Assembly: GCA_003649205.1 (NCBI GenBank)
Contig: QMRC01000007.1
Span: 1-64,000, forward strand
Origin: Thermoprotei archaeon
GTDB taxonomy: Archaea > Thermoproteota > Thermoprotei > Thermoproteales > B15-G16
Direction of reading: 5' to 3'
Length of the DNA stretch: 64,000 nt
Numbering within the stretch: the first letter of the stretch is position 1; every line of letters begins with the position of its first letter. The notes below the pieces were generated by a model, which was given only the letters and a program-made list of their open reading frames with translations, did not search any database and was not told the origin of the DNA. Both the position numbers and the translations under genes were made by a program. Shown here in pieces: positions 44,434 to 59,702 of this stretch.

Positions 44434-45873
44434 GTGATTTCAGACTTTAATCCAATGAACTTGGTAAGAAGCTTAGGGTATGTAATGAGCACTGACCTCT
44501 TCTTCGATCTCTTCGTCAAGGAGGTTGAGGAGAAGCTCACTAATGGGAATTCAGGTACTGAATTCACTATGAAGCCGAAGATACCTACCATTCTCTTCAA
44601 CGAGATCAAGAAGCTATGGGTAAGCGAACTCCCCAAGAGAACAACTAACTGCTCCATAGTAGCTGTTGATGGTGGTATAAGGTCACTAGGTCTAGAAGGT
44701 GGTAGAGAGGTAGTTATAACGAGGGCTATAGCAGTAACTAGTTCAGGTGCTAGAGCAAGACAATTAAGAGTTGAGTTAAGTAAGCTACAGGGTTTTGCTC
44801 TAAAGCTCTCACTACTTACGCAGGTAGAGTGCTCTGTTGCTCTTGAAGCTCTAGAGAAGGTACCTAATGTGGATTACTTACTTCTCGATGGTTCACTATA
44901 CTATAGAGTAGTCCATGCACTTCACAGAATTCTTAGACCTAGGGAGATAGCAGATACTTACTACCTACCTGAGCTAATCATGACCGTGACCTACGTAGCT
45001 ACCTTACTCAAGCGATGTCGCGAGCTCAACGTAGTGCCGCTATTCATAACGAAGGACTCATCATCACGAATGTTGAAGGACTACGTAATCAGCAACATAA
45101 TCTACGAGCAGCTGTACGAGAACAAGCTCCTTACAGACCTAGAGGACATCACCACGGAACTACTTTTAAAAGCACGAAACCTGTACTCAGTTACCTGGGT
45201 AAAACACTACAGAGCAAATCTCGAAAAACTTCAACAACACCTAAGAGCGGCACCTACGAATGTAGCGGAAGAACTTATACACTGTATTGAGCTATGGCTT
45301 CAACCGCACATCACAGACGTAGACTTAATTCGCTCAACAGTAACCACTATAGGTTTCTCAAGACCGCTCAACATAGGTCTCATAGATATCCACTTAGATA
45401 ACTTACTACAGGTACTTGAGAGGAGTAAGAAGAGAGTACTTGACAGGATCAGTGATGCACTCAAGATGAGAATCAATGAGGTACTAGGTAATGAGAGTTA
45501 CTGGTACACCCTACTGATGAATGCTCTCAAGACAATACCAACTCTCTACATGACGTACATACGTGTGACACCAGACGATACACCACTAGCAATTGAGATA
45601 CCTAACTTCAGATCCAGTATGGGATTCGTAGAGTTCCGAAGTAGGAGATTAAGTAGTGAACTCGAGATACTAGATCCACTTAGTATAGTTGTCAGTGGTT
45701 ACAGGAATTCAACAGTCTACAATGTATGGCTCTACTTAGCACATCAGTACGCAACCTTCAGATCAACTCAGTTCAGAAGCTACGTAAAGTACCTCGAAGC
45801 ACATCTCTCAAAGTATGGTCTTATCCTTCGAAAGAAGAGAAGAGAGAAGATGGTGGTGGCTCCTCTTGAGTGA
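44434..45873 (+). CDS. nurA: DNA double-strand break repair nuclease NurA
   Basis: VAVDGG, LLLDGSL, ITKDSSS, LYLAH; directly upstream of herA-mre11-rad50; start uncertain. Confidence 0.85.
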   Translation: MISDFNPMNLVRSLGYVMSTDLFFDLFVKEVEEKLTNGNSGTEFTMKPKIPTILFNEIKKLWVSELPKRTTNCSIVAVDGGIRSLGLEGGREVVITRAIAVTSSGARARQLRVELSKLQGFALKLSLLTQVECSVALEALEKVPNVDYLLLDGSLYYRVVHALHRILRPREIADTYYLPELIMTVTYVATLLKRCRELNVVPLFITKDSSSRMLKDYVISNIIYEQLYENKLLTDLEDITTELLLKARNLYSVTWVKHYRANLEKLQQHLRAAPTNVAEELIHCIELWLQPHITDVDLIRSTVTTIGFSRPLNIGLIDIHLDNLLQVLERSKKRVLDRISDALKMRINEVLGNESYWYTLLMNALKTIPTLYMTYIRVTPDDTPLAIEIPNFRSSMGFVEFRSRRLSSELEILDPLSIVVSGYRNSTVYNVWLYLAHQYATFRSTQFRSYVKYLEAHLSKYGLILRKKRREKMVVAPLE

Positions 45874-47899
45874 GGAGGTTGGTTATGTAGTTGGTGAGGT
45901 CACTCCCCTAGAATTTACCTTCGCTGTAAACCCCAAGACACCAGTACCTCTCTACGAGTATGTGTACTGTGAGCTAGAGGATGTACCACCTGGTGAGACC
46001 AAGCTCCATAGAGTAAAGGTCATAGCACAGGTACATGAGGTGTATCGTGTTGGTGTTGGTCTTGGCAAGAATGTACCCTATGATGTGGCTAAGAACTTAG
46101 CAGCTAGCGGTGTTGAGGTTGAGGAGATTCACCTAGCTAAGGCTAGGGTACTTGGGTATGTGTGGAGAGGTAGATTGGTAACTCCGAGGAGACCACCGAG
46201 AGCGAATACTAAGGTCTTTAGAGCACCAACTGAGCTAGTTAAGGAGCTTTACAGCGTTCCAGAGGATAGAGCACTTCACATAGGGTACCTTGTTGCTAGA
46301 CCTGAAGTACCTGTCTACCTAGATGTTGAGGGCTTGAAGAGGCACTTAGCGATAATAGCAGCTACAGGTAGTGGGAAGACTTGGTGCGCAGTGTTATTGA
46401 TTGAAGAGCTGTTGAAGAAGGGTGCCACGATAGTTGTCATAGATCCTCATGGTGAGTACGTTAAGTTGAAGGAGAAGGTTCACGTCCTAGATCCCAGACT
46501 TAGGGATAGAGTTCTTGTACTTAAAGCTTCACGAACGCAGGAAGGTGATAAGCTCTATAGAATAAAGCTCCTTCAACTAGATTCAGAAACTCTCTCAAGT
46601 ATAGCGGGTATACCACAGAATGCTCACAAGATAAGACACTGTGTGAGAGCAGCATTCAACATAGTTAAGGCAATTGCTAAGTACGTGAATAGGCCTGAGC
46701 TAGTTAACATAGGTAACTTGTTGAAGGTGCTTAGTTTCTGGAGGAGAGAACGAAATGTATCAAAGTCGAGGAAGTCAGGTAACCTATCTCCTGAACCTAT
46801 AGTTAGGAAGATGCTTCAGGAATTATTTAATCTAGGTAATTCAGATAGTGAGTTAGTTAGGAAGCTCAGTAAGTACATTGAGGATCTGTACGCAGCAACG
46901 TACCGTGATGTATCACCTTGTCTTGATGCTATCAGGTACCTAAGGTCACTTAAGAGGTATGGGGTCTACACCTCAACAACTACACCACTACACGAAATTC
47001 TTCAACCAGCTCACGTAACGATACTGAACCTCAGTGGTGTTAAGGAGGAAATACAGGACCACATCGTCTACAATGTCCTAACCAGGATATTCAATGCTAG
47101 AGTCAGGTACGTCAGAGACCTACCTGGTGAAAGGTATGAGTACCCTGTTGTCGTCTTCATTGAGGAAGCACATAGATTCGCACCACCTAAACACCGTAGT
47201 AGAAGAACTTGGAGTCAAGAGATAATCACGAGGATTGCTTCTGAAGGTAGGAAGTTCGGTGTCTACTTAGTGGTCATAACTCAGAGACCATCGAAGATAG
47301 ACTCAGATGTGCTGTCTCAATGTCAGAATCAGATCGTCCTCAAGATAGTTAATCCGAAAGATCAAGAAGCTATTAAGGATGCTAGTGAAGTGCTCTCACA
47401 GGACTTACTCATGAACTTACCTAGCCTCAACACCGGTGAAGCTATTGTTGTTGGTCCATTAACTAAAGCACCCGTAATAGTCAGGTTGAGGGATCGTATA
47501 TTACCCTACGGTGGTTCAGATATCGTGGTTAGTGAGGTATGGAGTAGAGCATTGACCTCAGTACTTCCAGATACCTCAAGTGAAGTACATGTACTTAGGA
47601 AGCTAGGTATCAACGTTGATCAAGGTACATTGAGGAAGGTAATGCCCTACCTACCGTATGTCACGTACGAGATTGATCCACTAACATTGACTATCCTCGG
47701 TAAGGTAAGTCTTGGACGTGAAGCGTATGTCGAGTATAGACTCGGTGAAGGTACATGGTACTGTTCAGCATGTAGACATAGCATTCAACCATGTGTACAC
47801 GTACTAGCACTCCTGCTAAAAGTTATAGCTTCTAAGGATATAAAATTACTTGAGAGAGAAGTGGTGCAGAACAATGGTAACGATAGCACACCTAGCTGA
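45866..47899 (+). CDS. herA: HerA helicase/translocase with C-terminal SWIM-like zinc finger
   Basis: HAS barrel VGYVVGE, RHLAIIAATGSGKT, IDPHGEY, FIEEAH, EGRKFG, TQRP; tail WYCSAC-x6-CVH. Confidence 0.93.
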   Translation: MSEEVGYVVGEVTPLEFTFAVNPKTPVPLYEYVYCELEDVPPGETKLHRVKVIAQVHEVYRVGVGLGKNVPYDVAKNLAASGVEVEEIHLAKARVLGYVWRGRLVTPRRPPRANTKVFRAPTELVKELYSVPEDRALHIGYLVARPEVPVYLDVEGLKRHLAIIAATGSGKTWCAVLLIEELLKKGATIVVIDPHGEYVKLKEKVHVLDPRLRDRVLVLKASRTQEGDKLYRIKLLQLDSETLSSIAGIPQNAHKIRHCVRAAFNIVKAIAKYVNRPELVNIGNLLKVLSFWRRERNVSKSRKSGNLSPEPIVRKMLQELFNLGNSDSELVRKLSKYIEDLYAATYRDVSPCLDAIRYLRSLKRYGVYTSTTTPLHEILQPAHVTILNLSGVKEEIQDHIVYNVLTRIFNARVRYVRDLPGERYEYPVVVFIEEAHRFAPPKHRSRRTWSQEIITRIASEGRKFGVYLVVITQRPSKIDSDVLSQCQNQIVLKIVNPKDQEAIKDASEVLSQDLLMNLPSLNTGEAIVVGPLTKAPVIVRLRDRILPYGGSDIVVSEVWSRALTSVLPDTSSEVHVLRKLGINVDQGTLRKVMPYLPYVTYEIDPLTLTILGKVSLGREAYVEYRLGEGTWYCSACRHSIQPCVHVLALLLKVIASKDIKLLEREVVQNNGNDSTPS

Positions 47900-49202
47900 T
47901 GCGCATCTAGGCTTTAGACAGTATGGGCTACCTGAAAGAGCTAGTGACTTCGCTAAATCATTCCACAGGGCAGTCGATGAGATAGTGGAGAGGAGAGCTG
48001 ACATAGACCTAGTACTGATAGTTGGTGATCTATTCCACAGCAAGAGACCTAGTCCAGAGACAATTCGTGAAGCTGTTATTGGTCTTAAGAAGCTCAGAGA
48101 AGCGAATATACCGGTCATAGTGACAAGAGGCAATCACGACGCGCCATACTCGCAAGGCAGCAACAATGTGTTGACTCTCCTCTCTGAGCTAGGTTTAGTC
48201 AAGTACATAGATTATGGAAGAGTAGAGATTAGTGGGATCGAAATCATAGCATGTGGTTGTACACCAACAGCGTATACAAGAGCACTAGAGAACTACTTGA
48301 GACAAGTAGTTAGCTTAGAGAAGGGACAACGTATCCTCCTACTTCACCAGGTTATTGAGGGTATAGAGCAAAATTACCCAAATGACCCGTATGTAGTACC
48401 ATTAGATGTAGTTAAGGAATTTGCTACGAAATTCAACTACATAGCTCTAGGTCATGTACATACCTTCGCACTGAAGCACCCTCAATTACCTGCATACTAC
48501 TCCGGATCACTAGATATCTGGGATATCTCTGAATTCGAGACATACATCATGAAGTCTAGCAAGACCTTAGTTAAGGAACGTGACATGAGTGAGAAGGGTT
48601 TCCTCATAGTTCATGTAGATGGTGGAATTGAGGTAGAGAGAGTAAGACTTAGACCTAGTAGGAGGATGATTAGAGCAGTTCTCGCTTACAGTAATGAGGT
48701 GAAGCCTAGTGAAGTAATGAGGGATCTTATATCGGTAGCTCACGAGCTAGATAGGGAAGATGCTGTTGTTGTGATCGAGTTGCTAGGTAATCTAGTACCT
48801 GGTTCGAGTAGGCATGAGCTAAATTTGAAGGAGGTGAGGAAGTACTTTAGAAGAGTTCTCAAACTCGATATCAGGAATAGGCTGGGTGTAGTTACGTCGA
48901 CTACAGATGGTAAAGTAGTAGACATATCGTCACTGAGTTTAGAGTCGCTTCTCAGGAGTTCATTCCTGAAATACTTCAGCAACGTAGCTAAGTCAATTGC
49001 TCTAGATCCTCAGTTCCTAAGTGAGTTAGCTATGAAATTGCTCGATCTCCTAGCTCAAGGTAAGACTAGAGAAGCCCTCTACGTATTGTATAGAGAGTTG
49101 GGTGTTGATACAGGTACTGTATCGATTCCGAGTATCAGTACCTCTACTTCAGCTCCCTCTAGAAGGGGTAGGGAATCCACGATATTAGATTGGTTGAGGT
49201 GA
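47874..49202 (+). CDS. mre11: Mre11 nuclease
   Basis: ADAHLG, GDLFH, GNHD, LLHQ, LGHVH, YSGS. Confidence 0.95.
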   Translation: MVTIAHLADAHLGFRQYGLPERASDFAKSFHRAVDEIVERRADIDLVLIVGDLFHSKRPSPETIREAVIGLKKLREANIPVIVTRGNHDAPYSQGSNNVLTLLSELGLVKYIDYGRVEISGIEIIACGCTPTAYTRALENYLRQVVSLEKGQRILLLHQVIEGIEQNYPNDPYVVPLDVVKEFATKFNYIALGHVHTFALKHPQLPAYYSGSLDIWDISEFETYIMKSSKTLVKERDMSEKGFLIVHVDGGIEVERVRLRPSRRMIRAVLAYSNEVKPSEVMRDLISVAHELDREDAVVVIELLGNLVPGSSRHELNLKEVRKYFRRVLKLDIRNRLGVVTSTTDGKVVDISSLSLESLLRSSFLKYFSNVAKSIALDPQFLSELAMKLLDLLAQGKTREALYVLYRELGVDTGTVSIPSISTSTSAPSRRGRESTILDWLR

Positions 49203-49212
49203 GGGACTTACC

Positions 49213-51633
49213 TTGATCATTAGGTTAGAGGTAGAGAACTGGAGGTCCTACATAAGGGCCAGTGCTACGTTTACTGAAGGAATAACGTTTGTACATGGTG
49301 TTAATGGTGCTGGTAAGACATCTCTCCTAGAAGCTATAGCATATGCTCTCTACGGTTCTAGGTGGTTAAGGTTAGCGAGGAGGGAAGGTGAGGAGAGGTT
49401 AAGTGATCTCCAGAGGAGGGGTTCCAGTATTACTAAGGTTAGGTTGTGGTTTAGAGCACCTAGTGGTGAGGTGTATGTTGTTCAGAGGTGTATCGTGGGT
49501 GGTAGATCTCAACGAGATAGTACGTACCTAATGGATTCTAGAGGTAGGAGATTAGCTATTGGTGATGAGGAGGTTACTGAAGCTATTGAGAGGATAACTG
49601 GTATATCCTGTAGGGCGTTTAGGGAACTCCTCTACGTTAGGCAGGGTGAGCTGAAGGATATTCTAAAGGAGAGACGGAGAGAGAAGCTGGATGAGCTACT
49701 TAGGATCAAGGATCTGGAGAAGGCTAAGGACTCTATGAGGGATGTTATCTCGAAGCTAGATACAGCACTTAGGTTAACGATCCAGGAACTAAGTCAGGTA
49801 GAGCACCTCATTCGTGAGTACGAGAATAGGGTTCTAGATATCTCTAAGAAGATGGATGGGTTAGTTAAGTTGATTGAGGAGTATAGGACTAGAGTTAGTT
49901 CCATTGAGAGTAGACTTGAGGAGATGAAGAAACGTGAGGAGGAGTTGAGGAGTTATCGTGAGAGGATTCAGAATCTAAGACTCGAGGTAGCTAACTTAAG
50001 GACTGTTAGGGAGAGGTACATTTCTGAGATAAGGGTTCTAGAGGGTGAGCTTCAACGGGTTAAGGAGTTAAGGGATGAAGTTGAGAGGTTAGCTCGAGAA
50101 TTGCAGAGAGCATCTGAACTTGAGCAGAGATTACGTAGCTTGAGAGAACAGGAGAAGCAATTGCTCAATCTCCTCGGTGAGTACACGTACCTACTCAACC
50201 AAGTTAAGGAGTATGAAAAGCTGCTTAGTGAGGTCAATAGGCTTAGAGATGAGTATGAGAAGTGCAGTCAGGAGCTTAGATTGCTAGAGAGTGAGAGGAG
50301 TAAGCTACTTCAACAACTCTCATTAATTAGGAAGTTTGAGGAGGAGTATAGTGAACTACTTAAGCGTAGAGCTCAGCTAGAGCAGGAACTGAGTATTCTA
50401 CGTAATTTTGTAGATAATTTGGAGGGATCTAGGGTAGCTACGTGCCCTCTCTGTGAAAGAGAGATTAGTAGTGAGTACAGGGAATTGATTCTAAAGAGAA
50501 AGAGGAAGAGAATTGAGGAGTTGAAGAATACTCTAACTGACTTATCTAAGCGTATTCAGGAGATTGAGCAGTCACTTAAGCAACGAGATGAGCTTCTCTC
50601 TAGACTACTGAATGTCGAGCAGTGTATAGCTAGTGCTCGATCTAGGTTGCAGGAACTGGAGAGTAAGCTACGTGAGCTAAGTGATCTACAGAAGCAGGTA
50701 CAGAGTATGTATGAGAAGATTAAGACTCTTGAGGGTAAGTTAAGTGAGTTAGAGAGAATTCGAGATGACATAACTCAGCTAGAGCGTGAAGCTGGTAGAG
50801 TACAGGAACTGAGAGAGAGATTGAGTTCTTTAATGCAGGAGCTATCTAGGGAGCGTGTACTCGAGCAGAAAATAGCGGAGCTAAGGGAGAGGGTAAGTGA
50901 GGTTACGGAACTAATTGAGTGTAAAGAACGTGAGGTTAAGTCTCTACTCACTAAATTCAATGAGGAGGAGTACACTAACTTACAGAGTAGTATTCAGCAT
51001 CTTGAGGAGGAGCTTGTGAGGTCTAAATCAGAGCTAAGTAGGCTAGAGGGTGAACTAAAGTCCTACCATGAACAACTATCCGAAGCCAAGAGGAAGTTAA
51101 GTGAACTCGAGAAGAGACGAGAAGAGTTAATCAGGAAGAGGCAGAACCTCGAGCGGGTACTCGCAGTAGCCTCTCTGATAAGGAGGTCGTACGACGAGAT
51201 CAAGCCAATGCTTAGGTCATTGGTCATCGAAGCAATAAACATGGAAGCAGAGAACCTGTTCAATCAACTTAAACACAAGAAAAACTATGAGAGTATCGAG
51301 ATATCACCTGATTACGAGGTGTATATACGTGATAGATCAGGTGCTAAGTACCTTATCGACTACTGTTCTGAAGGTGAGAAGACACTCATAGCACTGGTCC
51401 TCAGATATGCACTAGCAAAGGTACTCATAGGTGAAACACCCATATTAATTCTTGACGAACCAACAGAACACCTAGATAGAGAGCATAGAGCAAGACTCAT
51501 CAGGTGGTTAAGCACCTGTGAGTGGGCTAGACAACTAATAGTGACATCTCACATAGATGAGTTCAGTCAAGTAGCAAACAACGTAGTGGAGGTAAGAGTA
51601 AGAGAAGACGGCGTATCAGAGGTAATTCAGTGA
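49213..51633 (+). CDS. rad50: Rad50 ATPase
   Basis: GVNGAGKT, Q-loop YVRQ, zinc hook CPLC, CSEGE, ILDEPT, VTSH. Confidence 0.95.
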   Translation: MIIRLEVENWRSYIRASATFTEGITFVHGVNGAGKTSLLEAIAYALYGSRWLRLARREGEERLSDLQRRGSSITKVRLWFRAPSGEVYVVQRCIVGGRSQRDSTYLMDSRGRRLAIGDEEVTEAIERITGISCRAFRELLYVRQGELKDILKERRREKLDELLRIKDLEKAKDSMRDVISKLDTALRLTIQELSQVEHLIREYENRVLDISKKMDGLVKLIEEYRTRVSSIESRLEEMKKREEELRSYRERIQNLRLEVANLRTVRERYISEIRVLEGELQRVKELRDEVERLARELQRASELEQRLRSLREQEKQLLNLLGEYTYLLNQVKEYEKLLSEVNRLRDEYEKCSQELRLLESERSKLLQQLSLIRKFEEEYSELLKRRAQLEQELSILRNFVDNLEGSRVATCPLCEREISSEYRELILKRKRKRIEELKNTLTDLSKRIQEIEQSLKQRDELLSRLLNVEQCIASARSRLQELESKLRELSDLQKQVQSMYEKIKTLEGKLSELERIRDDITQLEREAGRVQELRERLSSLMQELSRERVLEQKIAELRERVSEVTELIECKEREVKSLLTKFNEEEYTNLQSSIQHLEEELVRSKSELSRLEGELKSYHEQLSEAKRKLSELEKRREELIRKRQNLERVLAVASLIRRSYDEIKPMLRSLVIEAINMEAENLFNQLKHKKNYESIEISPDYEVYIRDRSGAKYLIDYCSEGEKTLIALVLRYALAKVLIGETPILILDEPTEHLDREHRARLIRWLSTCEWARQLIVTSHIDEFSQVANNVVEVRVREDGVSEVIQ

Positions 51634-51735
51634 TACGTGCAATAACAATACAATAAAGTGCAATTCTGCACATTGAAAGAGCAACAACTCAACAGGTTAA
51701 GTACCTCTACTCCAACTCCTTCTCCGGGAACACTC

Positions 51736-52455
51736 ATGGGTAAGGTAGTGGTTATTAAGGAGAAGAGCGAGAGCATACCATCGATATTCTTGAAGTCAGT
51801 AGTGGGTGTAGTCTGCTTCGTACTATTACTCACGATATCACCAGTGCTAGCAATGCTATCTCTCGGCTCAGCCGCTACCTTCATAGCTTTGAAAAAGATA
51901 GTAGGTAGAAAGAGGAAAAGAGAAGATACAGTACCTGAAGACGAAGATACAGAAGCGCTGAAACTCAACACAAAGAGGAGTAGGGCATTTCACTCAGTAA
52001 TCAGGCTGAAGCCAGTGAACTTAAGTAAGCTACATAGACTAGACATGAAGGTGACACTCCTCGTACTTGATCCCAAAGCAAACTACATACTGGTACCTAG
52101 AGGACTAGAGTTAACCTGTATAGCACTCATGAAAGTACAGACACAGCAACCGCTTGACAGGGATACTATAGCGAAGATCTGCCTCAGTACAGATTGTGAA
52201 GTCGAGCCCTCCGAAGTAGTAACACTAGATCACGTAGGTAATAGCAAGATACCGCTCACACACTACGTACTGGTAGTTAGGTCTAGGAAGGTAACACCAG
52301 TAGTGACATCAAACACCGTAGCTGAGTTAATTAGCAGAGTTAGTCTCGCAATCTCAACACTAACCTCAACAATCATGAGTAGAGACCCCCAAGCAGTGAT
52401 CGAAGTTCTACCAGCTAGTAGAGTTATTGAGGAACAGCTACTGATGAGGTGGTGA
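51736..52455 (+). CDS. Membrane-anchored hypothetical protein
   Basis: N-terminal hydrophobic hairpin (VVGVVCFVLLLTISPVLAMLSLGSAATFIAL), then KKIVGRKRKR and a soluble alpha/beta domain; stop 1 nt before the next ATG. Confidence 0.75.
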   Translation: MGKVVVIKEKSESIPSIFLKSVVGVVCFVLLLTISPVLAMLSLGSAATFIALKKIVGRKRKREDTVPEDEDTEALKLNTKRSRAFHSVIRLKPVNLSKLHRLDMKVTLLVLDPKANYILVPRGLELTCIALMKVQTQQPLDRDTIAKICLSTDCEVEPSEVVTLDHVGNSKIPLTHYVLVVRSRKVTPVVTSNTVAELISRVSLAISTLTSTIMSRDPQAVIEVLPASRVIEEQLLMRW

Positions 52456-52456
52456 C

Positions 52457-53785
52457 ATGAGGATCACCATAGGTTACGAAATTCAGGGTAACGTAGCAGT
52501 ACGTGAAGCAATGCTAGATCTTAGAGGTGGAGACGTAATCGGTATCTTCGGTAAGTGTGGTAGTACTACAGTCAAGCAGTTAATCACATCACTTAGTGAT
52601 CTGTCAGAGGAAATAACCTCCACAGTGATTCTAGATAGTGAAGGTACTCTCCGAAACCTCAAAGCACTAAACGAGTACAGGTACACAGTTCTTGGATGGA
52701 ATGCATCACTACCTCTAATAGAAGTAATTCCCCCAGGAAAAGACCTCTCATCTAGACTCCTCATGGTAACTGACATCATTGCAGCAGCACTGAATCTCAG
52801 CGATATCGAGGCACACATACTTCACAACGCACTCATGAAGTACCTAACAAGCAGTAGTCACGAGCTAGATAACCTAATGAAAGCTCTCTCGGAAGAGTAC
52901 ATGAAGTTAAGTCCTGTAGAGAGAACGAGAGCATACAACATACTCTCACTAATGAGGGACCTAAAGTACGGTAGACTAGGAGCTACTTTCTCTGAACTAC
53001 ACCACACAGTAAATTTAGAAGAGAGTATGCTCTACGTAGATACAGCACTAATACCTCCAAGCTACAGACCTCTCATACTATCACTCCTGATGTACTACCT
53101 GTATAGTAGAGGTGCTAGGGGTAAGATCATAGTGATACTGAACTTCGGCACTTACCTAAGTGATGTATCGATGAGATCAAAGAGCTTCAGTACCCTACTC
53201 ACTACGTTACTGATAAACAACGTGACGGTAATACATTCAAACTCAATACTAGAGCTCCCTACGTACTTAAGAGAATACATCACATACATAATCCAGCACA
53301 GGGTAAACACAAGTACTGAAGCAAGAGCTCTAGCAGATTTCTACAAGCTACCTGAAGAAACATTAACGAAGTTGAGAGATCACGAAGCATACCTAGTCGG
53401 TAGAGGTCTATGCCTCAAGATTGCGCTATGGCATGACATAGTTGAGGAGTTACCTACCTCTAGGTTACCCAGAGAATTACTTACACCCCGTGAACCAGCA
53501 GCCCAACCACTGATAAGGGAGGTATTCGGTGATAGAGCAGAGCTAGTGTACGAGGTACTGAACTACCTAAGGAGAGGTGCAGTTACTAGAGATGAGCTAC
53601 TCTCCTTCCTAACTGAAGGTATGGGTCTCGATACCACATCAGCGGCCAAGCTAATCAATGAGCTATGTGTTCACGGTCTTGTAGAGGACTTCATTGCGAG
53701 AGATGGTAGGTACTGGATTAGGCTCTCCATTAGGGGTCTTGTCTCTGTTGATGAGTATGAGGAGTGGAGAGCAAGAGAGACGTAG
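52457..53785 (+). CDS. Degenerate HerA/VirB4/FtsK-like P-loop protein with C-terminal winged helix
   Basis: IGIFGKCGSTT (broken Walker A), VILDSEG, LTKLRDHEAYL; C-terminal VTRDELL...AAKLINELCVHGLV wHTH. Confidence 0.65.
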   Translation: MRITIGYEIQGNVAVREAMLDLRGGDVIGIFGKCGSTTVKQLITSLSDLSEEITSTVILDSEGTLRNLKALNEYRYTVLGWNASLPLIEVIPPGKDLSSRLLMVTDIIAAALNLSDIEAHILHNALMKYLTSSSHELDNLMKALSEEYMKLSPVERTRAYNILSLMRDLKYGRLGATFSELHHTVNLEESMLYVDTALIPPSYRPLILSLLMYYLYSRGARGKIIVILNFGTYLSDVSMRSKSFSTLLTTLLINNVTVIHSNSILELPTYLREYITYIIQHRVNTSTEARALADFYKLPEETLTKLRDHEAYLVGRGLCLKIALWHDIVEELPTSRLPRELLTPREPAAQPLIREVFGDRAELVYEVLNYLRRGAVTRDELLSFLTEGMGLDTTSAAKLINELCVHGLVEDFIARDGRYWIRLSIRGLVSVDEYEEWRARET

Positions 53786-53799
53786 TGGAGGTGATTTTG

Positions 53800-54219
53800 A
53801 TGAATATTAGATGGGACTCTAGTGGACTAGGATTTACATGGACTATAGGTATTGTAGGTACAGGTATCCTACGTGGTAGGGTAAGGAGGGTCAGTACTAG
53901 GAATGGCGTACGAATAGTGCGGTCAGTGTACCTTGTACCAAAGAGGTCGTTAAGAGATGATGCTGGTGAGGAATTACTTACAGAGTGGTATGAACCGCAG
54001 GAATTCAGTAAGCTAGTCGACGCAGAACTCAAGTTGCTCTCCATAGTGCTTGAAGAAAGAAGTAGATCAGGCGACCCTGTTCAGGAGATTAAGCTCGCAC
54101 TTGCTGACTTGGAGAAGCTCCTCAATCAAGTTGCCCTCCTTAAAGCTAGATTGGAGAAGTTATTGGAGGTGGTGAGTTATGGGAGGAAGGAGGAGAACTC
54201 AAACCACAACTCAAACTAG
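53800..54219 (+). CDS. Hypothetical protein, beta-rich basic N-domain plus C-terminal leucine zipper
   Basis: GGAGGTGA site before ATG 53800; overlaps the radA start. Confidence 0.7.
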   Translation: MNIRWDSSGLGFTWTIGIVGTGILRGRVRRVSTRNGVRIVRSVYLVPKRSLRDDAGEELLTEWYEPQEFSKLVDAELKLLSIVLEERSRSGDPVQEIKLALADLEKLLNQVALLKARLEKLLEVVSYGRKEENSNHNSN

Positions 54220-55222
54220 CTCACAGGTTCAGCAGGTAAGTGAACAGAGATCTGGAGTACAGGAGCTTAAGGTAGTCAGGATACCAATCGAGGAGTTACC
54301 TAACACGACGAGAGCTACCATAGAGAAGTTGAAGAGTGCAGGTATCTACAGCGTTCAGCATCTCTCAATGTTTACGGTAGATGAGCTAGTTATGTACGAT
54401 GTGACGCCGGAGACAGCAGCTAGGTTACTGAGAAAAGCAAGAGCACTACTCAAGAGTGAACCACGAGTATTCTCACTCAAGGAGTTCTCAAACTACAAGA
54501 GTTCACTACCTAGAGTGAGGATTCACGTAAATGCTATAGACAACATGTTGGGAGGAGGTCTAGAACCTAGAGCTATCTACGAATTTGCTGGTGAATTCGG
54601 TGCTGGCAAGACACAGCTTTGTCATCAACTAGCTGTCACAGTTCAACTAAGCTACGATAGAGGTGGCGTAGCAGGAGCGGCGCTGTACATAGATACTGAA
54701 GGTACCTTTACACCCTCTAGAATAAAGTCAATAGCAGAGAGATTTGGGCTAGATCTCGACTACGTATTCTCAAACATCTACGTAACACAACCGAAGACTG
54801 TTGACGATTTACTTGAGTGTATTAGGACAGATGTCGTTAGGTACGTAGAGGACCACAACGTCAAGCTAATAATAGTTGACTCATTAATAGGTCTCTTCAG
54901 AGCTGAGTACCCTGGAAGGGAGAATCTAGCTCTAAGACAGCAGAGACTGAACTACGCTCTAGACTGGCTCTCGAGAGTAGCCAAGACCTACAACATCTTC
55001 GTAGTGATCACGAATCAGGTAATGGATGTACCAATGGGATTTGGTTCACAGAAACCAGCTGGTGGAAACATCATGGCACATGGTGCAACACATAGATTCC
55101 TACTATACAAAGTCGGTAGGGAATCAGGTCTAAGAGCAATGGAAGTGCTTGACTCACCAGCACTACCTGAGGGACTTACTGTCAAGTTCAGAATAACTGA
55201 AAGAGGGTTAGAGGATGTCTAG
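54179..55222 (+). CDS. radA: RadA/Rad51-family recombinase (divergent full-length form)
   Basis: N-terminal HhH domain, GEFGAGKTQ, YIDTEGTF, IIVDS, FRAEYPGRENLALRQQ, TNQV, GGNIMAH. Confidence 0.9.
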   Translation: MGGRRRTQTTTQTSSQVQQVSEQRSGVQELKVVRIPIEELPNTTRATIEKLKSAGIYSVQHLSMFTVDELVMYDVTPETAARLLRKARALLKSEPRVFSLKEFSNYKSSLPRVRIHVNAIDNMLGGGLEPRAIYEFAGEFGAGKTQLCHQLAVTVQLSYDRGGVAGAALYIDTEGTFTPSRIKSIAERFGLDLDYVFSNIYVTQPKTVDDLLECIRTDVVRYVEDHNVKLIIVDSLIGLFRAEYPGRENLALRQQRLNYALDWLSRVAKTYNIFVVITNQVMDVPMGFGSQKPAGGNIMAHGATHRFLLYKVGRESGLRAMEVLDSPALPEGLTVKFRITERGLEDV

Positions 55223-55556
55223 AGTAGACATACCACCAAAGATACTGCAGAAGTTCAGAGAGATGTTTCCGAATAAGAGTACATCGTGGATAAGGAGGTG
55301 CATAGCGAGATTACCAGATGTCGTTGAGGGTAAGGTAAGAGGTGTCTGGTTTGTTCGTGGTAATGCTAAGCTTGGTGATGCGTATTCACAGTACATAGTG
55401 AAGTACATTGCTGGTAAGTACATGTGTAGCTGTATGGAGAGAGAAAGACCGTACCACAGTAGGAGAAGAAAGGAGCTGTGCACACATGTTGGTGCGGTAA
55501 TCCTGTATAGGTTACTGAAGGGTGAGACTATATGCGAGACAGAGGTCTCATCCTGA
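55215..55556 (+). CDS. SWIM zinc-finger protein
   Basis: YMCSC-x15-CTH followed by VGAVIL helix. Confidence 0.85.
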   Translation: MSRVDIPPKILQKFREMFPNKSTSWIRRCIARLPDVVEGKVRGVWFVRGNAKLGDAYSQYIVKYIAGKYMCSCMERERPYHSRRRKELCTHVGAVILYRLLKGETICETEVSS

Positions 55557-56023
55557 TCTACGGTAATCCAAAGAGGATACTGAAGAAGCTAGTAACAGCA
55601 CTACAGAGAGAATCTGCACTACTGTTAACCGATAGCGAGAACTATGCAGCAGTACCATATGAGGAAAGCGATCTCAAGATAGCTATTGTCGATGTATTAG
55701 AGCATGTACCTGAGGTACTGAGTAAGGAAGCTAGAAAGGTAAACGTAGTGTGCACACCATCAATACTCAGCAAGGTTGTTAGAGAGTTCTACAGCTACGT
55801 AAGGAGTTCACCTAGTGGAAGTTACCTAGGAATATACTACGTCAAGCTACTTAGAGAGGTTCTCGAAAGAATTCGAGCAATAACGTACTCGAGAAGGTTA
55901 CTCACAATTGTCGTAGCACCTTCACGAATAAATCCAGTAACAGGTCAGGAGTACCCTGTACTACATTGGTTAGTTCAGAGGTACTTCGATGAGGTACTTC
56001 ATGAACAACACGTGATGGTGTGA
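55532..56023 (+). CDS. Truncated, inactive RecA-fold (RadB-like) protein
   Basis: GLILIYG without the GKT loop, LLLTDSE, VCTPSI at the Walker B position, IRAITYSRRLLTIVV, YPVLHWLVQRYFDEVL. Confidence 0.6.
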   Translation: MRDRGLILIYGNPKRILKKLVTALQRESALLLTDSENYAAVPYEESDLKIAIVDVLEHVPEVLSKEARKVNVVCTPSILSKVVREFYSYVRSSPSGSYLGIYYVKLLREVLERIRAITYSRRLLTIVVAPSRINPVTGQEYPVLHWLVQRYFDEVLHEQHVMV

Positions 56024-56024
56024 G

Positions 56025-56522
56025 GTGATTGATCTGTCTAAGGCGGGGAAGAACAACACAGTCGACATATACATATGTCCAATATGTGGTAAGACTTTCA
56101 GCAAGGAAAGCAGTTTAGCGCATCACATAACTAGAGCACATGGAACATACAAGCTAATTGTTGATGCAGGTAAATTCATCACTAGATTAGAGAAGGTTGA
56201 GAGAACACTCGCTAGAGTAGAGAGAGCAGTATCTCAACTACTTGAGCAAATTAAAACCCTAAATGGTAAGCTTGAGGAAGTCTCAACATCGATATCCGAG
56301 CTACAGAAGCAATTACAGGAGGTACCTCAGATAACGGTCATGGCTCCTAAAGTAACACTTGTAACTCAAGAAGCTAAGGCACTGAAGACCGAATTAGCTA
56401 CATCAATCAAGAGACTTGACCTACATAGCGCAGACACCATAGAGATACCAGACTACATCCTGGACAATCCATGGTTAAAAGTTCTCCAGCAAAAACCAAG
56501 AGAAGGCAACTTAAATTCCTAA
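56025..56522 (+). CDS. C2H2 zinc finger plus coiled coil plus arcadin-2-like C-terminal peptide
   Basis: YICPICGKTF-x5-LAHHITRAH, heptads, C-terminal DYILDNPWLKVLQQK. Confidence 0.85.
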   Translation: MIDLSKAGKNNTVDIYICPICGKTFSKESSLAHHITRAHGTYKLIVDAGKFITRLEKVERTLARVERAVSQLLEQIKTLNGKLEEVSTSISELQKQLQEVPQITVMAPKVTLVTQEAKALKTELATSIKRLDLHSADTIEIPDYILDNPWLKVLQQKPREGNLNS

Positions 56523-56540: not shown

Positions 56541-58715
56541 TTACGAGTATAGAAACGTAAGTGATGCCAGCACTAGATATACGAGCTGTGAAGCTACTAG
56601 TCCAATACCAATCATGTAAAGGATCACTGACAATGTCAACCTTACACTACGTGACTCCTGATATATCACAGCTATTGTTGGTAGACAAGGTACGTAAAGC
56701 GTGAAGAAAACCAGAAACGCCATCAAGCTAGGTAGAGTGAAGCCAAGTGCTCTCAATGCTTCATCAATACTCACTCCACCATATAGTAATGACGTAGCCT
56801 CCAAGAAGGCCTCCTTCGCTATAAATCCATGAAGTAGTGCAAAACCTACCTTCCACGCTTTTTCAGCGTCAAGACCATACAGCACAGAAATTACTGGAGC
56901 TAGTAGCTTCCCAAGTAATGCACCATAGGTCTTCTCAATACCTACACCATACCCCTCTGGACCATAGCTCAGCAACATCCACGTGACGATACTCAAGCCA
57001 ACTATTATGATACCTGCCTTCCTTAGGAAGTGCTTACTGTAATCCCAAGTCAACCACCACAGTACCTTACCTGAAGGTCTGTGAATTGGAGGTAGCTCAA
57101 TAACCAGTTCCGGTGGCTCCTTCCTACGGTACACGACTCTCCTAGTGAGAATTGATGTGAGGAGTGCTACAAGGAAGGATATGGCGTAGAGCGATAGAAG
57201 TGCAAGTGCTTGCCCTAGTGGGTTCTTAATGTATGTAGTGACAAATGCTAAGATAACAACTAACCTTGCTTGACAAGGAATGAATGGTACAGAAACTATC
57301 AATTGCCTCCTCTCCTCTTCCTCAAGTGCTGTCCTAGATGCCAGTACAGCAGGTAGGTTACATCCGAGACCTATCATGAATGGGTAAATAGCTCTACCAC
57401 TTAACCCAAATCTACTGAAGAAGTTGTGGAATGAGATAGCGAAGCGTGGTGCTAATCCACTATCCTCTAGCGTAGCTATGAGTAGAGAGATCAACATTAT
57501 CAGTGGCAGGAATGAGAGAATAGCACCAACACCTGGAATAACACCATCAACTATTAACGACGTCACTTGTGGTCCAAGACACGTCTTGAGAAGTGGTTCA
57601 AGAAGTGTACTTAGGTACGTAAATCCTAGACCAAGCAATCCCGATATGCTGTACTCCTCAATTAACTCAGCTAATTCACTAAACCCTAAGTAGCTAAGAA
57701 GTACATTGAATGGAAATCCCGTATTCACAGCAAATATCAGAGAGAACAGTATGAGAAGGGATATGAAACTGACTACAGGACCCATCAGTGGGTGCTGAAT
57801 TAACCTATCGAGAAGCGCAGTAGCTAACTCAGTTAGGCTAAGTTCCTCGTACCTACGTGCTTTCTTCTCAACACGAACAACGACATCGCCTAGGAGAGAG
57901 TCTATGAACTTGAATCTCTGAGCTACAAATAACTCCATTAACTCTCTACCATAGGTTCTAGCTAATGACTCGCGAATCCTCCTAACTCCATGAACTACCT
58001 CATCTTCACCAAGTAACTCAAGCTCCTTCTCCAGCTCTGGATCACCTTCGAGAAGTCTAATAGCCAACCACCTAAGAGGGTACTTCCTGGAGAGAGCTGA
58101 CTTAGACAGTACCCTCTCCACATCGGATATAGTAGACTCAAGAAAAGACCCATAGTTAACCCTAATAGGCTCTCTCCTACACCTCCTACCCTCGGCAACA
58201 TCAATTATCGCATCGAGTAATTCTCTCAAGCCATATCCCTTAATAGCGGATACAGGAACTACAGGAACAGAGAGCTTACTTTCAAGTCTATCTACGTGGA
58301 TGTGAATGCCTAAACTATGTGTGAGGTCTGATTTCGTCAACGCAATGACGACTTTAGGCGTTAACTCAAGTACCTGAATAGCTAGGTACATTGTCCTCTC
58401 TACAGCTGTTGAATCAACGAGCACCAAAACGAGATCAGGTTTCTCCTCCACGATGTACTTCCTAGCAATAACCTCTTCAGTGGTGGAAGCTGATAAACCG
58501 TAGATACCGGGTAGATCAACAAATCGAATAATCTTGCCCTTATATTCACGAACTCCCTCCTTTCTCTCAACGGTTGTTCCAGGCCAATTAGCTACATGAG
58601 ATATCTCACCAGTGAGTACGTTAAATAGCGTTGACTTACCAACATTTGGCTGCCCAATAACGCCAACAACTATCTCACGTTCTCTTCCACTGTTCTTACC
58701 CGTGGTAACCACCAT
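56541..58715 (-). CDS. feoB: Ferrous iron transporter FeoB
   Basis: GQPNVGKS, NWPGTTVE, DLPG, LEDSG, PFIPC, FFTLYVPC; ATG 58715 preferred. Confidence 0.96.
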   Translation of the reverse strand: MVVTTGKNSGREREIVVGVIGQPNVGKSTLFNVLTGEISHVANWPGTTVERKEGVREYKGKIIRFVDLPGIYGLSASTTEEVIARKYIVEEKPDLVLVLVDSTAVERTMYLAIQVLELTPKVVIALTKSDLTHSLGIHIHVDRLESKLSVPVVPVSAIKGYGLRELLDAIIDVAEGRRCRREPIRVNYGSFLESTISDVERVLSKSALSRKYPLRWLAIRLLEGDPELEKELELLGEDEVVHGVRRIRESLARTYGRELMELFVAQRFKFIDSLLGDVVVRVEKKARRYEELSLTELATALLDRLIQHPLMGPVVSFISLLILFSLIFAVNTGFPFNVLLSYLGFSELAELIEEYSISGLLGLGFTYLSTLLEPLLKTCLGPQVTSLIVDGVIPGVGAILSFLPLIMLISLLIATLEDSGLAPRFAISFHNFFSRFGLSGRAIYPFMIGLGCNLPAVLASRTALEEEERRQLIVSVPFIPCQARLVVILAFVTTYIKNPLGQALALLSLYAISFLVALLTSILTRRVVYRRKEPPELVIELPPIHRPSGKVLWWLTWDYSKHFLRKAGIIIVGLSIVTWMLLSYGPEGYGVGIEKTYGALLGKLLAPVISVLYGLDAEKAWKVGFALLHGFIAKEAFLEATSLLYGGVSIDEALRALGFTLPSLMAFLVFFTLYVPCLPTIAVIYQESRSVRLTLSVILYMIGIGLVASQLVYLVLASLTFLYS

Positions 58716-58752
58716 GAGTTTGACATATACAACATTTAATAAACATTTCCAC

Positions 58753-58986
58753 TTACTTGAGCACTTCAACCAGAATCTTCTTAGCAATACCCCTACTCAG
58801 GGCAATCTCAACACCTCTAACCTCAATCACGAGAGGTCCCCTACCACTATTGTCAAGAACCTTAACCTCACTACCAGGTACCAACCCCATCTGCATAAGT
58901 CTTCTATTAATTCCGTAACCTACATCGAGAGCAATGACCCTACATCGAGTACCTGGAGGTACCATATCTAAAGCAGTTGTAGTCAT
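58753..58986 (-). CDS. feoA: FeoA protein
   Basis: RRLMQMGLVPG, GPLVIEVRG, IALSRGIA. Confidence 0.95.
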   Translation of the reverse strand: MTTTALDMVPPGTRCRVIALDVGYGINRRLMQMGLVPGSEVKVLDNSGRGPLVIEVRGVEIALSRGIAKKILVEVLK

Positions 58987-59702
58987 GGAGACCTCACCTC
59001 AGACACAATGAGTAGCCTAGCATGTTCAACAGGTAACTTAACGAGACGACAAGTACCATTACTCTTAATCTCAAGCTCGAGAAATCTCCGACCAACACCT
59101 CGAATACTAAATACACACCCAGTAACAAGTCCAAGCCTAGTAAGCTCATGTAGTGCCCTTGTCAGCTCACCTAGTATCCTAACAACAGTAAACACCTTAC
59201 CTACACTTACCGTGCTAATCTCAGCTAGATTACTACCACATCTCTTCTCCTCTCCTCTACCAGGTACAGGGTTGCCATGTGGACAGGATACTGGGTAATG
59301 TAGATAACTATCAATCCTCCTAATGACCTCGCTTGGAACATGCTCTAGTGAATGAGCAACAACGTGTGTGCTGTATAGATCAAGACCAAGCACTCTATAG
59401 AGGAAGCATTCCGAGACCCTGTGCTTGTATAGTACACCTAGCGCTATTTCACGACCCCTATCAGTTAACTTCGCACCACCATACCTAGTCCACTCAACGT
59501 ACCCAAGCTCATGGAGCTTCTTCAACATCTTAGATGCTGTTGAATACGTAACCTCTAGCTCACTAGCTAAGTGTGAAGTCCTGACAATACCATAAATCTC
59601 TTCGAGACGGTACATTGTCGATAAGTAATCCTCAATAGTGTTTCTAGTCTGAGAGCTAATGTTGTGTAGCGAGGTCATCCATGGGTTAGATATGGGAAAC
59701 AA
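58983..59702 (-). CDS. DtxR/MntR-family metal-dependent regulator with FeoA-like domain
   Basis: EDYL, HTH, KHRVSE, LEH, CPHGNPVP. Confidence 0.92.
   Translation of the reverse strand: MFPISNPWMTSLHNISSQTRNTIEDYLSTMYRLEEIYGIVRTSHLASELEVTYSTASKMLKKLHELGYVEWTRYGGAKLTDRGREIALGVLYKHRVSECFLYRVLGLDLYSTHVVAHSLEHVPSEVIRRIDSYLHYPVSCPHGNPVPGRGEEKRCGSNLAEISTVSVGKVFTVVRILGELTRALHELTRLGLVTGCVFSIRGVGRRFLELEIKSNGTCRLVKLPVEHARLLIVSEVRSP

Follow-up and report, generated by a model that had tools for sequence, protein, structure and literature searches.

The window analysed here, a stretch of 64,000 nucleotides (nt) from the genome of a Thermoprotei archaeon (assembly GCA_003649205.1, contig QMRC01000007.1, positions 1 to 64,000), carries a same-strand (+) array of genes at 44434-56522, which runs from a nurA-like gene to a gene encoding a C2H2 zinc-finger protein (Table 1). 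Within this array, a gene for a RadA-family protein (RadA2) is followed by a gene for a stand-alone SWIM zinc-finger protein of 113 amino acids (aa) and then by an open reading frame (ORF) of 163 aa, ORF163. The genes are tightly packed: from rad50 onward they either overlap or are separated by gaps of at most 24 nt, the gap between rad50 and the next gene being 24 nt; the SWIM ORF starts 8 nt before the radA2 stop (the overlap reads ATGTCTAG) and the start of ORF163 lies 25 nt ahead of the SWIM stop. We report that, as judged from sequence and gene order, radA2, SWIM and ORF163 belong to an operon conserved in Thermoproteota, and we consider for them a role like that of the eukaryotic Shu complex.

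The order radA2-SWIM-ORF163-C2H2 (four genes) is identical in the sister species (G001), and a Nei-Gojobori comparison with that species gave ratios of non-synonymous to synonymous substitution (dN/dS) of 0.03 for RadA2, 0.05 for SWIM, 0.15 for ORF163 and 0.16 for the C2H2 gene, with 19 synonymous differences in SWIM and 46 in ORF163. All four genes are under purifying selection, and the SWIM ORF and ORF163 are therefore genes under constraint. That these two might be chance open frames beside radA, and not genes, could be argued from the lack of any Pfam or NCBIfam match for either protein of the window, but this is hardly credible: it is already refuted by the dN/dS ratios, by a SWIM family with hundreds of homologues, and by the conservation of the operon in distant genomes, with the profile (hhalign) matches between its families that are described below. 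An earlier, sequence-only reading of this DNA had called both ORFs, and the overlaps and dN/dS ratios bear it out.

RadA2 is full length: it has an N-terminal helix-hairpin-helix domain, and both its Walker A (GEFGAGKT) and its Walker B (IIVDS) motif are intact. It scores 299.1 bits against NCBIfam PRK04301, above the cut-off of 259, and 277.7 bits against TIGR02236, under the cut-off of 361. There are three PF08423 genes in this genome, one on contig C2 (324.6 bits), RadA2 (220.3 bits) and one on contig C16 (88.9 bits), and RadA2 is 44% identical to the C2 protein, which is the main RadA. A quick maximum-likelihood tree of 52 RadA-family proteins united the 12 main RadA copies in one clade (Shimodaira-Hasegawa approximate likelihood-ratio test, SH-aLRT, 98), inside which two long-branch extra copies also fell, and placed RadA2 outside it; its closest relatives there were second copies from genomes of family f2, at 54% identity (52-56% for the RadA2 orthologues of the order). 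By these sequence comparisons RadA2 is a paralogue and not the organism's main RadA, and in 5/5 genomes checked the RadA of the operon is, likewise, a paralogue beside a higher-scoring main RadA. The "radA" neighbour of the sequence-only reading is thus a RadA-family recombinase with intact Walker motifs, but a second copy, the main gene lying on C2.

The 113-aa protein is, on the sequence evidence of its family, a true SWIM protein. None of the zinc ligands (C71, C73, C89 and H91) varies across an alignment of 19 homologues, and the residue three places after the histidine is Ala in 17 members and Ser in the other two (the window protein reads C-T-H-V-G-A), within a predicted layout of N-terminal helices, a beta-sheet and the motif CxC...CxHxxA. 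Pfam SWIM (PF04434, gathering cut-off 19.6 bits) is matched at E<=1 by 15 of these 19 members, the best at 5.1e-5, and some database members have a precomputed PF04434 match or are labelled "SWIM zinc finger family protein" by their source; the window protein itself has no Pfam match at E<=1. With its invariant ligands, the Pfam matches of its relatives and the 8-nt overlap, the stand-alone SWIM protein overlapping radA that had been described earlier stands as described. An AlphaFold model of the protein (predicted local distance difference test score, pLDDT, 84.7) found as its top match among 48,161 solved chains the SWIM region of ZSWIM8 (PDB 9rwz chain M; VIA-align Z 5.9, 90 residues, root-mean-square deviation, rmsd, 3.5 Å, 19% identity), and Shu2 (6dex_B) ranked third, as a weak match (Z 3.4, 91 residues, rmsd 5.1 Å); in absolute terms both Z scores are low, and a Foldseek search with the model had no match at E<=0.001. 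The match to ZSWIM8, which in eukaryotes is a large ubiquitin-ligase substrate receptor, points only to a common SWIM fold.

By six-frame search, SWIM homologues are present in 35/41 related genomes (E<=1) and in 67/301 genomes sampled across the phylum (E<=0.001). Relatives within the window's order have a form of ~195 aa with an additional C-terminal domain, and the window protein and those from outside the order are short; in a search for longer SWIM fusions, all the matches listed (120 of 234) had 188-212 aa, with no fusion to a RecA-like domain among them. We rejected the idea that the C-terminal domain of the ~195-aa proteins has become detached to give ORF163, as there was no BLASTP match.

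SWIM genes recur beside genes of the RadA family. In the 41 related genomes 21 of 48 SWIM copies, from 11 genomes, lie within 6 kb of a PF08423 gene where we estimate that ~1 would do so by chance; copies within one genome are not independent, and at least five different gene arrangements occur among these SWIM-RadA linkages. Of the 21 linked copies, 18 are beside divergent paralogues, two beside the RadA2 type (only in this genus) and one near a main RadA, so that a SWIM neighbour is found for 18/36 divergent RadA paralogues versus 1/39 main RadAs. Outside the order a RadA-like gene adjoins SWIM in 15/20 fetched loci, the other five all being from one genus (g9), and most of those 15 loci have a common order: genes for proteins of ~210 aa, ~445 aa and ~117 aa, a RadA paralogue (~320 aa), SWIM (~110-145 aa) and a small protein of 130-207 aa in what we call the post-SWIM slot. 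The window shows the same order, and two further families could be aligned with it: hhalign places its 442-aa protein in the ~445-aa family (99.8%, E 1.1e-28, 377 columns) and its 151-aa protein, which has no Pfam or NCBIfam match, in the ~117-aa family (98.2%, E 6e-14, 96 columns). The window's 265-aa protein has no profile similarity (hhalign 0.3%) to the ~210-aa family which holds that place elsewhere. A profile search found the ~445-aa family, at full length, in 21/301 sampled genomes from 10 GTDB families, and in 19 of these 21 genomes a SWIM match lies within about 3 kb of the ~445-aa gene.

The 442-aa protein resembles the HerA-NurA machinery in its predicted fold, its ESM Atlas neighbours being DUF87/HerA clusters (feature score 0.93-0.94, template-modelling score, TM, 0.62-0.75), and the operon also adjoins nurA-herA-mre11-rad50. 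Unlike HerA, its family has no invariant GK[ST] (alignment of 12 members) and ends in a winged-helix-like region, and the window protein has only weak Pfam and NCBIfam matches, with none to DUF87 at E<=1 and none to the HAS barrel or HerA_C. In the operon of another genome of the same class (G196), the slot protein (146 aa) has the same position as ORF163, between SWIM and a C2H2 protein, and that C2H2 protein is homologous to the one in the window (BLASTP E 2e-19); the six genes from the ~445-aa gene to C2H2 are therefore common to the window and G196 in the same order, and the seventh, upstream gene (~210-265 aa) corresponds by position only. The window's C2H2 protein itself weakly matches LmuB, SbcC and Rad50 in their zinc-hook/coiled-coil part. 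We conclude from sequence and synteny that the operon is a conserved Thermoproteota gene set encoding a HerA-like protein, a ~117-aa protein, a RadA paralogue, a SWIM protein and a small RecA-like protein, joined here by C2H2. The sequence-only reading, which had seen a two-gene pair, was right that a RadA-family recombinase is encoded together with SWIM and a putatively degenerate protein of RecA type, but the pair belongs to this larger operon with a HerA-like protein.

In other genomes the post-SWIM slot is, by sequence, RecA-derived. One subgroup (A6, four proteins) matches RadA paralogues by hhalign (95%, E 3.7e-8, 106 columns) over a region that spans strand 2, Walker B, the long helix and strand 4, and its top PDB sequence matches are RAD51 and RadB (E about 0.1). 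The slot protein of genome G194 has an intact GEAGAGKT and matches RadB TIGR02237 at 1.5e-13, and in genome G133 SWIM and the slot domain form a single protein of 265 aa. The remaining slot subgroups are mutually undetectable by hhalign, and the slot therefore evolves fast.

ORF163 has no Pfam, NCBIfam (E<=1), PHROGs or PADLOC match. It has two matches in a clustered collection of 5.8 billion proteins, and among the 41 related genomes only the sister species has a homologue by sequence. An exhaustive HMMER search of 1.84 billion representatives found no credible non-self match; a 1219-aa hit to a bacterial surface tandem-repeat protein (P0004, four stretches) was judged spurious, its E-value of 1.7e-8 being due to tandem repeats, which inflate the score. 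We searched for the Walker A pattern GxxxxGK[ST] in ORF163 and found no GK[ST] anywhere; the protein reads G-N-P-K-R after the first strand, where the G194 slot protein has its P-loop. An ESM Atlas model of exactly this protein (predicted template-modelling score 0.77, pLDDT 0.72) has as its neighbours mostly RecA/Rad51/RadB/KaiC and AAA_24 clusters (3/10 rows are without a named family), with TM 0.68-0.78 by query over 137-159 of the 163 residues, and in the Atlas feature search a "putative recombinase RecA" cluster scored 0.89, under the tool's line of 0.9. Sequence links to other slot proteins are weak but collinear: phmmer about 1e-3 to the G194 protein (21-sequence set), a best BLASTP link of E 0.003, and an hhalign match to the RadB-like slot group A7 (29%, E 5.8e-4) over residues 106-157. 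In a joint alignment ORF163 and the RadA/RadB-like slot proteins have in common a strand-G...helix...strand start and a C-terminal RY.DE stretch. Because of the Atlas neighbours, the RecA-derived slot and these collinear links, ORF163 is most likely a RecA/RadB-fold derivative without a P-loop. Its earlier description as a RecA-fold remnant with Walker A deleted is thus supported by the missing GK[ST] and the RecA-type neighbours in the Atlas, but not by any significant sequence similarity to RadA.

We lean towards the view that this is a conserved recombination-accessory operon with a Shu-like mediator role, to which SWIM contributes the zinc-finger subunit and ORF163 a degenerate subunit of RecA fold. 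The SWIM protein would bridge the ATP-site-less RecA-fold protein and the RadA paralogue, forming a heteromeric mediator of the Rad51-paralogue type; this mediator may cap, nucleate or stabilise RadA filaments on ssDNA (DNA in single-stranded form), the ssDNA substrate being made, perhaps, by NurA-HerA and Mre11-Rad50, which are encoded directly upstream here, and it might work in the manner of SWS1-SWSAP1 or of Shu2-Shu1-Psy3-Csm2. That the proteins form a complex, that they act on RadA and that they are tied to end resection are steps that we infer from the gene content; complex prediction for SWIM (alignment A4) with ORF163 (A2) gave an interface score (ipSAE) of 0.00 in two runs, which is evidence neither way.

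The composition of the operon invites this comparison. The Shu complex (SWS1-SWSAP1(-SPIDR) or Shu2-Shu1-Psy3-Csm2) likewise has a small CxC...CxHxxA SWIM protein together with divergent, partly ATP-site-less proteins of the Rad51/RadA fold beside a main recombinase; the extended Shu2/SWS1 motif and the Shu composition are as given in PMC6316741. The window SWIM protein has this motif, which is not specific to Shu2/SWS1. The archaeal pairing of SWIM with RadA-fold proteins is seen here from gene linkage and from the one natural fusion (G133), and, the archaeal module adds three proteins for which Shu has no counterpart, namely a RadA paralogue that is full length and apparently active, a HerA-like protein and one of ~117 aa. 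RadB and aRadC/Sulfolobus Ral, too, resemble the slot proteins, being small RecA cores with no N-terminal domain, and it is RadB that the G194 protein matches; ORF163 and most slot proteins differ from RadB in having no Walker A and in scoring far below any RadB cut-off. RadB and aRadC/Sulfolobus Ral are archaeal RadA paralogues which are thought to act as recombination mediators, and we know of no link of RadB to a SWIM protein. Our literature searches on archaeal SWIM proteins with RadA, RadB or Shu found no description of a SWIM/RadA-paralogue operon and no link between RadB and SWIM. According to the introduction of PMC5727457, the conservation of Shu2 orthologues extends "from archaea to humans", which may bear on the novelty of this finding.

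Several results weigh against a Shu-like mediator. A profile of the 19 SWIM sequences, searched against all PDB chains at E<=10, found only an unrelated coiled-coil protein although Shu2 (6dex) is in the library, and the SWIM model is closer in fold to ZSWIM8 than to Shu2. The profile and structure comparison by which the Shu-like counterpart of the sequence-only reading was to be checked thus gave, for SWIM, no sequence link to Shu2/SWS1 and a weak fold match; what stands of that proposal is that co-encoding with the RadA family recurs. For ORF163, hhalign gave a probability of 0.1% against the RadA paralogues and of 0.1-1.3% against most other post-SWIM subgroups (14% against a mixed set), and its AlphaFold model, from a two-sequence alignment, had a pLDDT of 40.6 and was unusable for fold search, so that its fold rests on the single-sequence Atlas model. 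Within the window's own order the operon is not a fixture either: the RadA2 orthologues of family f2 have ordinary chromosomal surroundings, with none of the window's neighbour genes, and the ~445-aa family is in 0/30 sampled genomes of families f2 and f3. Together these last two points mean that the arrangement in the window could be a lateral acquisition. Common descent with, or membership in, the Shu2/SWS1 family is not established by these comparisons, and a bolder version of the proposal seems to us improbable: that the Thermoproteota operon and the eukaryotic Shu complex have a common origin, an SWS1-type SWIM subunit and a Rad51-paralogue partner with no ATP site having already worked as a pair in archaea before eukaryogenesis, with the HerA-like and C2H2 proteins (the latter with a C-terminal NPW tail, described below) tying the pair to end resection and perhaps to an archaeal cytoskeleton.

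The main rival to a mediator of chromosomal recombination is that the module is part of a mobile element or DNA-transfer system (an integrated conjugative or Ted/Ced-like element, or a virus) or descends from one, in which case the RadA paralogue, SWIM and the RecA-like protein would handle DNA of the element or DNA that is being taken in, and not aid chromosomal RadA. Pyrobaculum-type relatives do hold SWIM and RadA-like genes in multicopy cassettes with HerA/FtsK/TraG-like and TrwB-like ATPases, which also counts against our own proposal; one genome has up to six SWIM copies, five of them beside a RadA-like gene, and another (G231) has 15 SWIM matches of which eight contain internal stop codons. 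In the window's genome, the third RadA-like gene and a SWIM homologue lie beside HerA/TraG-like ATPases on contig C16, the operon is patchy within the order, and Ted loci of Thermoproteales, which are linked to DNA import, carry HerA-like and Rad50 genes (PMC9905601). However, the words RadA, RecA and SWIM do not occur in the available text of that paper; in the window there are no tRNA genes and no integrase nearby, GC content is even at 0.41-0.47 across 50-60 kb, and no PHROGs or PADLOC match at E<=0.01 was found for the SWIM, ORF163, 442-aa and 151-aa proteins. In distant lineages the operon is single copy per genome, in varied chromosomal contexts, and here it lies directly 3' of nurA-herA-mre11-rad50. 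We therefore regard a mobile origin as unlikely, while taking it seriously.

It may be, instead, that ORF163 is an unrelated, lineage-specific alpha/beta protein in a slot of fast turnover, and that SWIM has no Shu-like role but is a zinc finger of a general kind, such as a regulator, that binds DNA or protein. ORF163 is indeed a near-orphan, with its two matches among 5.8 billion clustered proteins; the post-SWIM subgroups do not detect one another by hhalign; and SWIM domains occur in many unrelated contexts, the SWIM gene adjoining a family-B DNA polymerase of 646-694 aa, with no RadA, at two loci of family f4 (L048:7020-9487 and L050:4891-7416; both of genus g9). Set against this are the consistently RecA-type fold neighbours of ORF163 in the Atlas, the two independent subgroups of the same slot that are RecA-family by sequence, the start and end motifs that ORF163 has in common with them, and the order SWIM, slot protein, C2H2 that is kept in G196. 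On balance we think that such an unrelated pair is decidedly unlikely and prefer to read SWIM and ORF163 as candidate subunits of a recombination-accessory operon.

To our knowledge, mediators of the Rad51-paralogue type, the Shu complex especially, are regarded as having arisen in eukaryotes from duplicated RadA genes, and we know of no explanation for the origin of the Shu SWIM subunit. That one archaeal operon encodes a SWIM protein, a protein of predicted RecA fold without an ATP site and a dedicated RadA paralogue would offer a simple prokaryotic system in which to test the effect of a SWIM subunit on a recombinase filament, and would permit a test of whether the eukaryotic arrangement was inherited or arose by convergence. 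It would also assign a likely role to several "hypothetical" families across Thermoproteota.

Two kinds of locus that carry related genes deserve description. On contig C16 of the window's genome (locus L039:388-10213, also L003) there is a very divergent RadA-like gene, of 387 aa with Walker A intact, and a SWIM homologue of 152 aa lies ~0.8 kb downstream of it on the opposite strand; nearby are two HerA/TraG-like ATPases and numerous ORFs of no assigned function, and the locus looks like an integrated element. In three other genomes (G005, G029 and G039; loci L028-L038) a cassette of ~12 kb, probably mobile or involved in DNA transfer, is repeated up to five times per genome. It starts with a small protein, a 658-aa HerA/FtsK-like ATPase, two proteins of no assigned family, a 305-aa TrwB-like AAA ATPase and SWIM (194 aa), after which come a 137-aa Cys-rich protein, variable genes, a 310-aa RadA-like gene and large uncharacterised proteins. 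No hhalign match above 20% was found between the window's ORF163, 442-, 151-, 265- and 165-aa proteins and 19 neighbour clusters of the SWIM/RadA cassettes of the order. In G231, of family f4, a TnpB/Cas12f-like gene lies near the SWIM matches.

Table 1. Genes of the array in the window, and proteins with an NPW tail at other loci
Feature	Position	Strand	Evidence
nurA-like	44434-45873	+	Pfam NurA 6.9e-10
herA	45815-47899	+	Pfam DUF87/HerA 1.9e-36
mre11-like phosphoesterase	47850-49202	+	Pfam Metallophos 6.9e-13
rad50	49213-51633	+	SMC_N 3.4e-21 and Rad50 zinc hook
265-aa protein with hydrophobic stretch, first gene 3' of rad50	51658-52455	+	no family match (Pfam, NCBIfam)
442-aa HerA/DUF87-like protein of predicted P-loop fold, no canonical Walker A, winged-helix-like C-terminus	52457-53785	+	hhalign, ESM Atlas
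151-aa protein of the operon's ~117-aa family	53764-54219	+	hhalign
RadA paralogue (RadA2), 347 aa	54179-55222	+	Pfam Rad51 5.7e-65
stand-alone SWIM zinc-finger protein, 113 aa	55215-55556	+	19-homologue alignment, Pfam matches of relatives
ORF163, 163 aa, small alpha/beta protein (predicted), fast-evolving	55532-56023	+	ESM Atlas model, operon slot
165-aa C2H2 zinc-finger and coiled-coil protein, last of array	56025-56522	+	Pfam zf-C2H2 1.7e-6
further NPW-tail proteins	L068:5562-5930, L074:8659-9111, L023:8764-9141, L024:7341-7661, L025:7550-7945		

Several different small proteins of the SWIM/RadA-paralogue loci end in the same way, with a (D/N)NPW tail and hydrophobic and basic residues after a low-complexity linker. 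Its bearers (positions in Table 1) are the C2H2 coiled-coil proteins of the window and of G196, ribbon-helix-helix proteins of family f2 loci, and a 150-aa protein encoded after the RadA paralogue of genome G303.

Elsewhere in the window there is a second SMC/Rad50-like frame of 836 aa (3999-6299, minus strand), with a weak match to the window's Rad50 (E 2e-9, 4e-9), and the genome has three NurA-family matches, of which the copy in the window is not the best-scoring. Beyond the C2H2 gene, on the minus strand (56541-59702), are genes for three proteins that by eye resemble FeoB (748 aa, with a GTPase P-loop and numerous membrane helices), FeoA (77 aa) and a DtxR-type regulator (239 aa).

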